Shown: positions 55,838 through 59,535 of the stretch, one piece after another
Layout of the letters: every line of letters begins with the position of its first letter
How positions within the stretch are numbered: position 1 is the first letter of the stretch
Assembly (NCBI GenBank): GCA_019638275.1
Contig: JAHBUC010000005.1
Coordinates: forward strand, 111,149-175,148
Reading direction: 5' to 3'
Length of the DNA stretch: 64,000 nt
Source: Cyclobacteriaceae bacterium
GTDB taxonomy: Bacteria > Bacteroidota > Bacteroidia > Cytophagales > Cyclobacteriaceae
Made by a program: the position numbers and the translations under genes
The notes under the pieces: model-generated
What the model was told of the DNA's origin: nothing
Databases searched by the model: none
Seen by the model: the letters and a program-made list of their open reading frames with translations, nothing else

Positions 55838-56899
55838 CTATTTTGGTGTAACATTATCAATATGGAGCTGATCCCATTTAGCAAACAACGGCTTAAACTT
55901 CATTAGTCCCGGATCCAGATATCTGTCATTGAAATACTTAGAGAAATCTTTTTTCTTCTCTCGTGCATCAAAAATAATTAAGCCTCCCATTTTAACAGTT
56001 TTATTTGACGCCATTAGTTCCTGTATGTATTTCATGGCTTGATTATATCCTTGTTTAATCGATGATTCACCAAATCCAGAATTAATTTTTGTACCATCAT
56101 GATTTACGCACCGCCCTAACCACTTGACTTCAAAGAAGTAATAATTACCATCATTATCTTCAGTGTTGATGTCCATCCGTCTTTCTGAGTCCAGCTCATT
56201 CTCTTTACTCATATTGAATCCCCGGTCAATTTTACTTGCTAAAAAATCAAGTAAGTTATTTCGTAAATCGTTTTCGGGTTTATTCTTTAAGATATTCTTT
56301 ATATGCTTTCTCTTTCCATGATTGAGACGTTGAACTGAAAATTTATCTACAAAAAATGCAATGACATTTTTATGATGTTTCAGATGTTCTTGATATTCCT
56401 TCATTACTTCCTCAATGTCAGAAATATCTCGTTTTTTTTCGTAGAGTTTTATATCGCTATCAGCTAAAAAGGTTGTGTTTGAGTCTTCAATTTGATTATT
56501 CCAAATGCCCCATCCGGCTTTTGATAATAGAAAGACCCATTTATTATTTATTGATTTAGCCTTGCAATCAAGCCTTGCAGCAACAGAATCAGTGTAAAGT
56601 TTGTGTTCTTCGCTGTGTATGCATAGATCATTTTTTACTACGAATGTGTTTTTAAATTTTAAACGATGTAGGAGTTGTTCTAAGCCTTTATCAGCAACAT
56701 CGGGTCTTAAATTCTTTAAGTCGTCATCCGTAATTATAATCACAAAATTACTGCTTAAAGATTTCTCCCTAAGATGAACTAATTTACGAAGGAACCATCT
56801 GACAGGGTCAATTGTGGAAAATCGACCGTCTGATTTTTGAAGAATATCCTCCTTATACTCCTGAATTTGACTAGATAAGTCTTCTAGACGTAAACTCAT
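55838..56899 (-). CDS. PD-(D/E)xK-motif protein (putative nuclease effector)
   Basis: ELDSERRMDINTEDNDGNYYFFEVKWLG gives an E...D...ExK arrangement (D243, E257, K259). It is the last gene of a three-gene operon, and the N-terminal ~200 aa are unassigned. Confidence 0.55.
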   Translation of the reverse strand: MSLRLEDLSSQIQEYKEDILQKSDGRFSTIDPVRWFLRKLVHLREKSLSSNFVIIITDDDLKNLRPDVADKGLEQLLHRLKFKNTFVVKNDLCIHSEEHKLYTDSVAARLDCKAKSINNKWVFLLSKAGWGIWNNQIEDSNTTFLADSDIKLYEKKRDISDIEEVMKEYQEHLKHHKNVIAFFVDKFSVQRLNHGKRKHIKNILKNKPENDLRNNLLDFLASKIDRGFNMSKENELDSERRMDINTEDNDGNYYFFEVKWLGRCVNHDGTKINSGFGESSIKQGYNQAMKYIQELMASNKTVKMGGLIIFDAREKKKDFSKYFNDRYLDPGLMKFKPLFAKWDQLHIDNVTPK

Positions 56900-56902
56900 T
56901 AT

Positions 56903-57511
56903 TTAAACTTTTCCTTTTACGATCTTACTAAAAATGAACTCAAAGTATAGTTCCAGGTATTCTTGATCATCAATCTTCTTGGAATCCTTACCTAATGTGT
57001 GTTCAAATACTTTTTTAAACTCATTTAAGAATTTAATAGTTGAGCTTGTTGCTGTGGTGTTCAATCGCTTAATGCTATTAGTTTCTAGATTTCTCCTATA
57101 CTCTGGATCTCGGATAATAAATTCATAAATTTTACCTTCACCGTAGAGGCCAAGAATATAGATAATCGTTTTTATCCACTCAGCCTTTTTTGTGATATCA
57201 TCCTTCATGGATTTTGGTGGTATATTTTTACCCAAAGTGATATATCCTTCTGGGTTTTTGTTTAAGTACTCATTTGATTGTAGAAATAATAAGGAATAAG
57301 AGATCAGTGGAAAATAGGGTCCAGTGTAGTCGATACTAAAGGAGTACATGTGAAATGGGTTTTTGTTTCTTTCATGCCTGAATGAGTACAATACACTAGA
57401 AAAATAGAGGATTCTTGAAATTGTTTGTTCTTTAATTCTTCGCCACCCCATTTCACTTGCTGATGACAACACCGATAGGATATCAAAATTAATATCGTAT
57501 ATATCAATCAT
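56903..57511 (-). CDS. 202-aa helical protein (middle component of the ATPase operon)
   Basis: Its start overlaps the ATPase stop by 4 nt, and its stop lies 3 nt before the next start. No catalytic motif. Confidence 0.55.
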   Translation of the reverse strand: MIDIYDINFDILSVLSSASEMGWRRIKEQTISRILYFSSVLYSFRHERNKNPFHMYSFSIDYTGPYFPLISYSLLFLQSNEYLNKNPEGYITLGKNIPPKSMKDDITKKAEWIKTIIYILGLYGEGKIYEFIIRDPEYRRNLETNSIKRLNTTATSSTIKFLNEFKKVFEHTLGKDSKKIDDQEYLELYFEFIFSKIVKGKV

Positions 57512-59535
57512 TGGCGTGAAATCTTTGATTTTAATTTTCTAGTCAACTGTTGCAACAAATCATTCATTCGTTTATTATCCATTTGAATTTGCGATCGCTT
57601 CCCTATTTGCAATAAATTTACGTAGTTGATACTTTCTGCCTTATCAATAATATATTGTAAAAACTCACTGTTGTTAAGATTGGAAGTAATAATAAGCGCG
57701 TTGGGTTTTTTTAAGTAATTCAAGAATACATTAGCAGCGTTTCGTTCGTAAGACATATCCAAACTACTGTCTGGGGTCTCACATATATAAAAGGATGGAG
57801 ATCTGTAAAAGAAATCGAGCAGGCTCATTCTATATGAATGATCAATGAAGAATCTCTGCGATTCTGATAATTGCATTTGATTTAGTCTTTCCTTTCCATT
57901 TATAATCGGGACAAATCGTTTCCCTAGACCATCTTTGAAATCATCATAAGTGAGTTTACAAGGAATGCCAAGAAATTTCTCAGCATATTCAGAAAATTTC
58001 TGCGATAGCTGCGTGGCAATTCTGATGTTTTCATTTTCAATTTTCTGTGAAATTCTCTCAACCTTTTCTTTTTCCTTTTTGCTGCGGGCAAGCAAGGCCG
58101 TTTTTTCACTTTCTAACTTATTAATCTCGGCTCGCATAGCATTAAACTCCACTGATCCTTTATCTTTTGTTTGCTTCTTATTCTGCGTGTGCTCAAGCGC
58201 CCACAATTCAGATTTTTTGGTAAACAAATCATTACTCAATTCTCTATATTTTTCTTCAAAAAGATCAATCCTCTCATCAATTTTACTTATTTCGGATTGT
58301 TGTTGTTGTATTTGTATACTCAGTGGCCTTAATTCTTTTTGAAGTTCTCCAAGATCAAATGATGGATTTCTTCTATAATTCAATGGTTGTTCACATACAA
58401 AACAGTGATCATCGTGAGTAGTTAATTGTTTGTGCTTTTTCTCTGGAAGCACTTTGTTACACATTGGGCAGTGACGACTAATCCTGATAAGGTCATGATG
58501 AATTTTATAAGATGGATTTACCTGTTCCCAGATCTGTTTATTTTCTTCAAACTCCGCTTTTGAAATTTTAGCTTCAATGATTTGTGCATCCTTAAGATTA
58601 CTGTTTAATTGATTGCTTAAGATGTTTCTTCTAGATGCGAGGGCTTCTTTCTGCTTATATATGGAATCCAACCCCGAGTTAAGACGTTGAATATCCTTGT
58701 TTAGTCTTGATACCTCTTTGGCTAAATCTTTGACTGATTTGCTAGCGTCATCATTAGTTTTTATTTTTTCAATAACATTCTCAATTGCACGAATGTCTTC
58801 CGATTTATGACGATATAAGCTGTCGAGATACTTTGCCTGATCCTTAGCCTTTTGACGTTCAATATCCAATTCTGGATCATTCCAATATTTACTTGATAGA
58901 TCTTCAACTATTCTTTGATCCTTATTATCATCCCAAAGAATAGTTTTATGACTTTCTTCAAATACTAATATTGTTGTAACGAAGAAAATTATATCATCAA
59001 AGCTTCCAAGATTTGCACATTTGGCGGCTTTGTCTTCAAATTTCTTTTGAAGAAATGCTTTCTTTTCTTCGTTGTCTTCTATCGCCTCATATTCTTCTTG
59101 AGTAATTATTTTCCCGGTTAAGTAGTCTGATTGGCCTTTCTCTGTAATCTTGACTTTCTCTAGAATGAAATCTTTAAGTTTTCGCGTTACTTCAAACGTA
59201 GTGTCACGAATTTTAAAAACAACAGTAATTTTAGCAGCATCATTTTTTTCATAACTAGCATCCATGCGATCTGCAAAAAAATCAGATGGATAAACTCGTC
59301 TCTTGATTATTTGACGCTCTAGATAAGTTCTGCGGTGTCCATATCGTTCAGCGTACCCACCAATTATACCGTATTTTAAGAGATTGATAAATGTTGTTTT
59401 ACCTAACCCATTTCCTCCGAAAATGATATTTACTCCATTGACAAATTTGTATTCGTAGTCAAGACCATTCGGGTAGAGGCTAAAGTCTTTAATTTTGATT
59501 GACTTCAACGTAGGTAAGAATATTTCGTTCATCAT
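57508..59535 (-). CDS. ABC/SMC-like ATPase with a long coiled-coil insert and a central four-Cys zinc ribbon
   Basis: Walker A GGNGLGKTT (K46), signature-like LSESQ, Walker B/D-loop SFYICETPDSSLD. About 300 aa of heptad-rich sequence separates the head halves. CPMC-N19-CFVC lies at aa 356-381. Confidence 0.8.
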   Translation of the reverse strand: MMNEIFLPTLKSIKIKDFSLYPNGLDYEYKFVNGVNIIFGGNGLGKTTFINLLKYGIIGGYAERYGHRRTYLERQIIKRRVYPSDFFADRMDASYEKNDAAKITVVFKIRDTTFEVTRKLKDFILEKVKITEKGQSDYLTGKIITQEEYEAIEDNEEKKAFLQKKFEDKAAKCANLGSFDDIIFFVTTILVFEESHKTILWDDNKDQRIVEDLSSKYWNDPELDIERQKAKDQAKYLDSLYRHKSEDIRAIENVIEKIKTNDDASKSVKDLAKEVSRLNKDIQRLNSGLDSIYKQKEALASRRNILSNQLNSNLKDAQIIEAKISKAEFEENKQIWEQVNPSYKIHHDLIRISRHCPMCNKVLPEKKHKQLTTHDDHCFVCEQPLNYRRNPSFDLGELQKELRPLSIQIQQQQSEISKIDERIDLFEEKYRELSNDLFTKKSELWALEHTQNKKQTKDKGSVEFNAMRAEINKLESEKTALLARSKKEKEKVERISQKIENENIRIATQLSQKFSEYAEKFLGIPCKLTYDDFKDGLGKRFVPIINGKERLNQMQLSESQRFFIDHSYRMSLLDFFYRSPSFYICETPDSSLDMSYERNAANVFLNYLKKPNALIITSNLNNSEFLQYIIDKAESINYVNLLQIGKRSQIQMDNKRMNDLLQQLTRKLKSKISRQ

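Follow-up and report, generated by a model that had tools for sequence, protein, structure and literature searches.

An earlier note on a 64,000-nucleotide stretch of Cyclobacteriaceae bacterium DNA (contig JAHBUC010000005.1, positions 111,149 to 175,148; the whole stretch is called the window here), made from the sequence alone, singled out a three-gene operon as a candidate defence module. This trio encodes a coiled-coil ABC ATPase, a small middle component (MC) and an effector with a predicted nuclease domain. We find that it belongs together with an adjoining DNA methyltransferase gene. Judging from sequences and predicted structures, we lean towards reading the four genes as a restriction-modification (R-M)-like defence system, carried as cargo by a Tn7-like element, in which an SMC-like complex would act on DNA and methylation would protect the host. 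The composition of the four-gene set is well supported; the restriction mechanism is what we infer from it.

Window coordinates are used throughout; the list of open reading frames (ORFs) was made by a program, and motif coordinates were re-read from the translations. Three genes lie on the reverse strand: an LmuB-related (Rad50/SMC-like) ATPase of 675 amino acids (aa) at 57508-59535, identified by ORF call and PADLOC; the MC of 202 aa at 56903-57511, a winged helix with a helical bundle by AlphaFold and Foldseek; and the effector of 353 aa at 55838-56899, which the same two programs divide into an N-terminal alpha/beta domain and a C-terminal PD-(D/E)xK nuclease. The ATPase and MC genes overlap by 4 nucleotides (nt; ATGA on the coding strand), and 3 nt separate MC from effector, so that ORFs, sizes, overlap and gap all stand as first described. 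On the forward strand, at 54513-55817, lies an N4-cytosine/N6-adenine-type DNA methyltransferase of 434 aa (PADLOC and Pfam). It converges on the trio, as had been noted, and its stop is 20 nt from that of the effector. The GC content of the module is 0.33-0.35, against about 0.45 in most of the window.

A methyltransferase accompanies the trio across phyla

A pattern scan of one genome per species (~185,000 species genomes) recovered 44 loci from Bacteroidota, Bacillota, Spirochaetota, Verrucomicrobiota, Acidobacteriota, Deferribacterota, a 'Deltaproteobacteria' metagenome-assembled genome (MAG) and an alphaproteobacterium, a patchy distribution over at least seven phyla. In all, 51 loci were compared, with the window proteins searched against all of their ORFs. 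Wherever the contig is long enough, all four proteins were found, the orthologous methyltransferase adjoining the trio; where a gene seems to be missing from a locus, the contig breaks off there, as it does within the methyltransferase in L013 and L019. The order ATPase, MC, effector is constant in 51 of 51 loci and, as the earlier note had remarked for the window, is not that of Lamassu. Three placements of the methyltransferase gene occur: on the strand of the trio and downstream of it (25 loci), convergent with it (12), or on its strand and upstream (seven, to which L036 and two Streptococcus suis loci are added); the gaps between it and the trio are mostly 0-15 nt. The contigs of the closest effector relatives likewise carry an ATPase-202-351 trio followed by a convergent N6/N4 methyltransferase.

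Because none of the 51 loci lacks the methyltransferase where its contig reaches far enough, and most have it in the same operon, we take the unit to be a four-gene system of methyltransferase plus trio. The view of the methyltransferase as a neighbour outside the system is thereby overturned; the proposed three-gene unit survives as a co-evolving operon, and loses its claim to completeness to the fourth gene. With four genes in the unit, restriction guided by methylation becomes a likelier mechanism than abortive infection of the Lamassu type.

Pairwise identities of ATPase, MC and effector correlate with one another (Spearman 0.63-0.78), and change is fastest in the N-terminal domain of the effector, and fast also in the ATPase coiled coil and in the wing of the MC (residues 81-120). 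Three loci, L037 (a Spirochaetaceae MAG), L038 (a Spirochaetales MAG) and L039 (an unclassified rumen bacterium), display modular recombination inside the system. Between L038 and L039 the ATPase heads share 91% identity, the MCs 71% and the effector N-domains 30%; between L037 and L039 MC and effector are 92-95% identical and the ATPase coiled coils 48%; the methyltransferase is about equally similar across all three pairs. MC and effector have thus been exchanged as one unit relative to the ATPase, leaving the methyltransferase unaffected. Together with the identity correlations, this exchange indicates that the trio behaves as one co-adapted complex and the methyltransferase as a constant, looser partner. 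Matched specificity between the effector N-domain and the methyltransferase recognition region was tested and rejected, since L038 and L039, with N-domains at 30%, have methyltransferases that are 87% identical in the core and 70% in the middle region.

Divergent and decayed copies were also seen. In Flavobacterium calami DGU38 (L012:8001-16859), two paralogous trios stand in tandem and share the one methyltransferase that follows them. Identity between the trios is ~22-24%; Walker A, a CxxC...CxxC hook and D...EVKW are all present in the second as well, which points to a divergent sister clade of the trio. A third divergent clade is found in S. suis (L051:6692-14399 and L050), with the layout methyltransferase-ATPase(625)-196 aa-361 aa. 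Its ATPase is 28% identical to that of the window, and the family profiles recognise its 196-aa and 361-aa proteins (E=1e-10 and 5e-19). The S. suis locus sits beside valS, and directly after it come the genes of a C5-cytosine methyltransferase and a protein of 524 aa, which are probably a type II R-M pair of their own. The ATPase and methyltransferase clusters of this clade each occur on more than 100 contigs, mostly of S. suis. In a Bacteroidetes MAG (L044:8001-13000) the ATPase is split, the effector truncated and the methyltransferase in three pieces, a decayed copy in which all parts have been lost together.

The ATPase resembles LmuB and has a degenerate hydrolysis site

The PADLOC LmuB model (PDLC03863) aligns with the window ATPase end to end (residues 13-619 against model positions 3-579 of 610, E=6e-17), and LmuB is the best PADLOC family for all 32 sequences of our ATPase alignment (best E=2e-24). 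Homologues fall into more than 120 clusters at 35-96% identity, from Bacteroidota, Firmicutes, Acinetobacter and others. The ABC head motifs are split between the two ends of the protein, as reported before, and translate in place: Walker A GGNGLGKTT at residues 40-48 (59392-59418, reverse strand) and, jointly at 57757-57870 on the same strand, the signature LSESQ (57856-57870) and the Walker B/D-loop FYICETPDSSLD (57757-57792). They are conserved in the 32 ATPases, among which G41, N42, G43, G45, K46, T47 and T48 of Walker A are invariant. The coiled coil of about 300 residues between the heads, also part of the first description, is borne out by composition (E/K/Q/R/L make up 46% of the central 300 residues, against 35% in the heads, and glycine is scarce) and by matches to SMC/Rad50 arm segments. 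At its apex is a CPxC...CxxC putative zinc hook (58393-58470, reverse strand), whose residues C356-P357-x-C359 and C378-x-x-C381 are invariant.

Aligned to Pyrococcus furiosus Rad50, E586-T587 stand opposite the Walker B D-E pair and N619 (57679-57681, reverse strand) opposite the H-loop histidine; all three residues are invariant in the family. CPxC is the hook motif described for LmuB, which is likewise reported to be without the catalytic glutamate (PMC10586767). Because the catalytic glutamate and the H-loop histidine are lost, the ATPase is probably a slow switch that binds ATP and engages its heads with little turnover, and not a motor.

The PDB sequence relatives of the ATPase are Rad50 and SMC heads only, also by profile search. 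No solved LmuB or DdmC chain was retrieved by the profile search of PDB sequences, and kinship to characterised Lamassu is therefore distant. Scores against SMC and archaeal SMC-related protein (ASRP) fall far under the curated cut-offs. The mad3 model is matched by 32 of 32 ATPases and PbeC by 30 of 32, the latter covering, in the window ATPase, the N-terminal head only.

The middle component is predicted to be a winged-helix protein

The AlphaFold model of the MC (pLDDT, the predicted local distance difference test, 90.7; pTM, the predicted template modelling score, 0.89; 31-sequence alignment) consists of a winged helix followed by a helical bundle. It holds a small beta-hairpin 'wing', which corrects the description of this protein as all-helical. 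The top Foldseek matches include the winged helix of ORC2 (prob 0.97), and MukE also appears. LmuC chains from three independent Lamassu cryo-EM structures are matched as well (9uxh_D, 9ny5_C and 9hqu_D; prob 0.97, 0.94 and 0.75, template modelling (TM) score 0.41-0.45, E-values 0.1-0.8), with 140-150 of ~170 residues aligned. The model is consistent with an LmuC-like fold, the MC being at most a candidate member of the LmuC family.

Sequence searches place neither partner of the ATPase. No significant family was found for MC or effector in Pfam, NCBIfam, PADLOC or PDB sequences, by single-sequence or profile searches. None of 41 MC members matches a Pfam ABC-three-component (ABC-3C) MC family and none of 43 effectors an ABC-3C C-terminal domain (CTD) family, and by sequence the trio does not fit, as had been suspected, the described Lamassu/ABC-3C partner families. 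Checked against the ABC-3C and Lamassu profiles that the earlier note had named, the trio is recognised in one of its parts: LmuB is found for the ATPase, while PADLOC LmuC is matched by 1 of 41 MC members, at 2e-4, and LmuA weakly by 4 of 43 effectors, at 7e-4 or weaker.

The effector carries a predicted PD-(D/E)xK nuclease domain

The effector was modelled with pLDDT 93.5 and pTM 0.83 (76-sequence alignment). In the model, residues 205-350 form a canonical PD-(D/E)xK core of alpha-beta-beta-beta-alpha-beta topology: helix 208-223 with E209; strands 231-235, 241-247 (D243) and 252-261 (E257, K259); helix 279-297 with Q287 and Y291; and strand 301-311 with D311. This core (55961-56275, reverse strand) carries the conserved residues E209, E233, D243, E257-x-K259-W260, Q287, Y291 and D311-x-R313, with the catalytic residues read from the translation at 56171-56173 (D243) and 56123-56131 (E257-V-K259). 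D243, E257, K259 and other core residues are invariant or nearly so in sets of 43 and 76 effector sequences. Since the ATPase motifs are comparably fixed across 32 sequences, we regard the motifs of both proteins as under selection and not as chance matches. The E...D...ExK nuclease that had been read in the C-terminal half of the effector is thus backed by near-invariant residues and by a confident model.

Foldseek, run on the 353-aa protein as the earlier note had advised, confirms a nuclease fold in the model. Its PDB neighbours are NucS (2vld, prob 0.99), EndoMS, SfsA, SduA (Shedu), Card1, EcoO109I and Cas4-like proteins, and its neighbours in a viral library are Mrr, PD-(D/E)xK and Cas4 proteins. 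Some members of the family also give weak Pfam matches to SfsA, DUF234, PDDEXK_4/9 and SduA_C. On the strength of the modelled fold, the C-terminal domain belongs to the PD-(D/E)xK nuclease superfamily.

Residues 1-200 of the effector (56300-56899, reverse strand) are confidently modelled as an alpha/beta domain. Its sole fold neighbours in the PDB are DisA/CdaA diadenylate-cyclase domains (prob 0.77-0.97, TM about 0.4), and it is without their DGA/RHR catalytic motifs. Close relatives of the effector are very few. A fused MC+effector alignment, searched exhaustively against 1.84 billion representatives, gave 166 relatives, every one of which is MC-sized, effector-sized or a fragment; the two families are therefore never fused to other domains.

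Of the four proteins, the methyltransferase varies least

The methyltransferase matches PADLOC MTase_II (PDLC03224, E=5e-57), Pfam N6_N4_Mtase and, weakly, mad2. Its motif I (FSGSGTT, residues 62-68; 54696-54716, forward strand) precedes motif IV (SPPY, residues 269-272; 55317-55328), a permuted order relative to that usual in the beta class; all 40 sequences compared have F-x-G-x-G-T-T and S-P-P-Y unchanged. N4-cytosine enzymes typically carry SPPY, and one UniRef entry names the S. suis orthologue as cytosine-N4. From its sequence, the enzyme most likely makes N4-methylcytosine (m4C). Within the middle region, the stretch N-x-[YF]-R-N-G-K is invariant. Mean column conservation falls from 0.60 in the methyltransferase through 0.54 (ATPase) and 0.53 (MC) to 0.47 (effector). 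The S. suis methylome literature offered nothing specific to this methyltransferase.

A 62-aa ribbon-helix-helix (RHH)-like ORF, recognised by sequence pattern, lies 5' of the methyltransferase (54311-54499, forward strand). It has homologues in L001 and L002 (E=1e-16) and L006 (5e-6) only, has none in the other convergent loci and gives no Pfam match; it is an accessory of the Tn7-associated clade alone and may act as a controller. The best sigma-70-like promoter match in the region (54254-54283, forward strand; TTGACT-18-TATAAT with an upstream TG, 11/12) is 28 nt upstream of this 62-aa gene. The site would fit a separate RHH-methyltransferase transcript, and it carries low weight since Bacteroidota promoters differ from that consensus.

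A proposed mechanism and its rivals

We propose that the methyltransferase, by making what is likely m4C, would mark the host's own DNA, and that the other three proteins would form one Lamassu-like complex. In it, an LmuB-like ATPase dimer would be joined at the zinc hook, and the winged-helix MC would sit on the ATPase and contact DNA. The 353-aa protein would dock via its N-terminal domain, its PD-(D/E)xK nuclease held inactive until ATP-dependent head engagement on incoming DNA, by an ATPase that is probably a slow switch, licensed it. Host methylation would keep the nuclease, or the sensing step, off the chromosome, and unmodified foreign DNA would be destroyed in place of the cell suicide typical of Lamassu. 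Two claims are joined here, that the trio would sense DNA and license a nuclease as a Lamassu-like complex, and that methylation would protect host DNA and make the system restriction-like instead of abortive.

Several observations weigh against this proposal. The methyltransferase core correlates weakly with the trio in pairwise identity (rho about 0.2, and 0.25 with the nuclease). No other protein of the set is as well conserved as the methyltransferase, whose middle region shows no hypervariability, and such conservation with weak coupling to the trio is atypical for classical R-M, where specificity diversifies and modification and restriction are matched. The m4C assignment, suggested by sequence, draws on general knowledge of SPPY and on one UniRef name. 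For the complex, the fold match between MC and LmuC is weak (E 0.1-0.8, TM 0.41-0.45), and no solved Lamassu protein was found by sequence for any member of the trio in searches of PDB sequences, profiles included. On the restriction side, no element was identified that reads methylation or DNA sequence.

In a rival reading, ATPase and MC might form a DNA-scanning apparatus that loads or guides the methyltransferase, as proposed for DndD/CxC with DndE, the nuclease being the restriction part. Dnd/Pbe-type ATPases with a small DNA-binding protein have been proposed to recruit modification enzymes, permuted N4-cytosine methylases among them (PMC10853773), PbeC is matched by 30 of 32 ATPases and mad3 of the methylation-based MADS by all 32, and a conserved methyltransferase middle region would fit specificity supplied by another subunit. 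The PbeC matches, however, are confined to the N-terminal head, the MC is a winged helix and not a double-RHH DndE, and ATPase and MC co-evolve weakly with the methyltransferase (~0.2) and strongly with the nuclease (0.63-0.78); the methyltransferase changes position and strand, whereas ATPase, MC and nuclease keep a fixed order. We regard a scanning role as unlikely. Slightly less likely still is an ordinary Lamassu/ABC-3C abortive-infection system, its methyltransferase a hitch-hiking orphan, regulator or addiction module with no part in telling self from non-self. An LmuB-like ATPase with a Walker B as degenerate as that of LmuB, an LmuC-like fold, a nuclease effector and again the weak co-evolution of methyltransferase and trio speak for it. 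It fits poorly with the linkage of one methyltransferase family to the trio in 51 of 51 loci, across phyla and in three arrangements, with invariant catalytic motifs in that methyltransferase, and with the described Lamassu systems, which are without one; ABC-3C MC and CTD families, moreover, are matched by 0 of 41 and 0 of 43 members, and both gene order and effector domain order are reversed.

If methyltransferase and nuclease were instead one system and the remaining genes another, the locus would hold a type II R-M pair (methyltransferase and 353-aa endonuclease) beside an unrelated pair of ATPase and small protein. Type II systems as a rule place a PD-(D/E)xK nuclease beside a methyltransferase, the two genes converge 20 nt apart in the window, and effector-less Lamassu clades exist. 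This arrangement we consider improbable, since the nuclease tracks ATPase and MC (rho 0.63-0.78) and not the methyltransferase (0.25), MC and nuclease were swapped together among L037, L038 and L039, and in 10 loci the methyltransferase is found upstream, at the ATPase end of the trio and not at that of the nuclease; nor does the nuclease family occur without ATPase and MC in the recovered loci, and the 166 representatives show no architecture beyond MC-sized or effector-sized. A housekeeping complex for DNA repair or chromosome maintenance, of the SbcC/Rad50/RecN type, is suggested by databases that name the ATPase 'Nuclease SbcCD subunit C' and by Rad50 and SMC heads as its sole PDB sequence relatives, and is very improbable indeed. 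There is no Mre11/SbcD partner, SMC and ASRP scores are far under cut-off, and no core synteny is conserved, in keeping with the earlier expectation that this is no housekeeping SbcC, RecN or SMC. The pattern scan met the module in 44 of about 185,000 species genomes, scattered over many phyla, in variable flanks rich in mobile-element and defence genes, with low GC and Tn7-like carriage. The restriction-like reading, with its sensing complex and protective methylation, is the one that we carry forward.

Genomic context of the module

At lower window coordinates than the module, Tn7-like core genes run on the forward strand: tnsA at 48262-48960, tnsB at 48963-50861 and tniB/tnsC at 50842-51723, with Pfam matches to Tn7_TnsA-like_N (5e-19), Mu-transpos_C/rve and TniB (2e-53). 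A tnsA-tnsB-tniB flank module is also present in L001 and L006. The ends of a Tn7-like element were not found in the window by inverted or direct repeats, by blastn of left against right flank or by alignment of the window to L006. Because the ends were not located, the label 'cargo', used from the first, rests on conserved adjacency to tnsABC in the window, L001 and L006.

Among the 132 nearest flanking ORFs of 37 loci, mobile-element genes (TnsD 3, TnsE 4, TniQ 3, plus resolvases and integrases) and defence genes (C5 methylases 3, AbiEii-type ABC ATPases 4, McrB-like AAA_5 2, Abi_alpha and SoFic) stand among unrelated housekeeping genes, with no conserved core synteny. The homologue survey called for earlier has thus yielded both three-gene synteny in 51 loci and flanks rich in mobile and defence genes. 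The module is accessory, mobile and of defence type. The phage collection contained no DNA match to it, and the plasmid collection two distant ones, both on megabase-sized replicons.

Further features lie around the element. After tniB/tnsC there is a gene for a protein of 282-287 aa in the window (51750-52601, forward strand), in L001 (3515-4363) and in L006 (13961-14824); the three are likened by position alone and occupy the slot expected for a target-selector gene. The window protein has no TniQ/TnsD family match, only a weak one to HATPase_c (E=0.005). At 53237-53572 (forward strand) is an Xre/ParS-type antitoxin (NCBIfam RES/Xre antitoxin, E=4e-16). In the ~740 nt that follow (53573-54310) no ORF of at least 60 aa was found in any frame, and no intact RES toxin, so that the gene is an orphan antitoxin or the remnant of a decayed toxin-antitoxin pair. 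Upstream of tnsA, the reverse strand of 46259-48099 encodes an IrrE/Peptidase_M78-domain protein of 269 aa (E=7e-17) and two ORFs of 131 and 203 aa without a family match, perhaps additional cargo or an adjacent mobile-element regulatory module. A second stretch, at 24001-28000, is also low in GC content (0.33-0.36, its flanks being at about 0.45) and has strong positive GC skew; possibly it is a further island gained by horizontal transfer.

Implications

If the restriction-like reading is true, an LmuB-like sensor obligatorily tied to a methyltransferase links Lamassu and R-M, and the module is a natural test of combining an SMC-type DNA sensor with epigenetic self-recognition. Two uncharacterised protein families, the MC and the effector N-terminal domain, would be added as well. 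Carriers include culturable, tractable bacteria (many S. suis genomes, Paenibacillus, Lysinibacillus, Flavobacterium, Prevotella and Porphyromonas gingivalis), which makes the predictions directly testable; how readily these species are transformed and how well they resist phage may depend in part on the system.

Comparison with known systems

Lamassu is at present understood as an abortive-infection system in which an SMC-like sensor releases an indiscriminate effector, and R-M systems as helicase-driven or stand-alone nucleases. The module shares with Lamassu a coiled-coil ABC ATPase of ~650-675 aa with a CPxC hook and no catalytic Walker B glutamate, a small middle protein whose predicted winged helix may resemble solved LmuC, a nuclease on the third protein, and tight coupling and co-evolution of the trio genes. 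It differs in gene order, the reverse of lmuA-lmuC-lmuB; in the effector, where the nuclease is C-terminal and joined to a new alpha/beta N-domain, whereas LmuA has an N-terminal effector and a helical CTD; and in its constant fourth gene, since no described Lamassu has a methyltransferase. With R-M systems of types I, III and II it has in common a catalytically conserved methyltransferase linked to a PD-(D/E)xK endonuclease and an NTPase, in genes that often form one operon and often travel on mobile elements. Its NTPase, however, is SMC/Rad50-like ABC with a hydrolysis site that is probably crippled, not a superfamily 2 (SF2) helicase or translocase; Pfam, PADLOC and NCBIfam scans gave no helicase or HsdS match among the four proteins, and the methyltransferase is unusually conserved and co-evolves weakly with the nuclease. 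A comprehensive 2025 review of R-M mentions no SMC/Rad50-type partner.

Two families of modification-based systems come near in single components. MADS is an eight-gene operon (mad1-8), whose published detection model makes mad6-8 mandatory. The ATPases match mad3 (32 of 32), the methyltransferase weakly mad2, and there is weak ATPase-type similarity to mad8; against this, the present module, of four genes, has nothing equivalent to mad6/7 in its operon, and mad3 is a 374-position model without coiled coil. In Dnd/Pbe-type systems, coiled-coil ABC ATPases with a small DNA-binding protein have been proposed to recruit modification enzymes, and circularly permuted N4-cytosine methylases are employed by some of them (PMC10853773). 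The module resembles them in its coiled-coil ABC ATPase, Cys-based hook, small, putatively DNA-binding partner and linked modification and nuclease genes. It departs from them in having a winged helix where they have the double-RHH DndE, a stand-alone PD-(D/E)xK nuclease where they have an HKD-SF2 helicase fusion, and no phosphorothioation genes; PADLOC and Pfam found no Dnd or HKD match among the module proteins. Rad50-Mre11/SbcCD has the same layout of head, coiled coil, zinc hook, coiled coil and head, and Lamassu itself, of which clades without an effector domain exist, has been proposed to derive from SbcCD. No locus, however, contains an Mre11/SbcD phosphoesterase, the arms are much shorter here, and the module, without catalytic glutamate and H-loop histidine, is mobile, sporadic and methyltransferase-linked.

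On their defining features, MADS, Dnd/Pbe, SbcCD, Wadjet and type I/III R-M were therefore rejected as its identity. PADLOC v2 and Pfam have no models for MC or effector, and public records call both hypothetical. No set of methyltransferase and LmuB-like protein was met in the literature on Lamassu, ABC-3C, R-M, MADS, Dnd and BREX, a search that did not include the ABC-3C-defining Krishnan et al. 2020. The module combines known kinds, a Lamassu-like complex and R-M logic, and is not categorically new. Within these kinds it might represent an R-M class as yet without a name, with MC and effector N-domain as new families, a tentative proposal to which we give slightly under even chances: a Lamassu-type, SMC/Rad50-like restriction machine in which self-marking would have been grafted onto a sensor of DNA structure or ends, and a suicidal architecture turned host-sparing.

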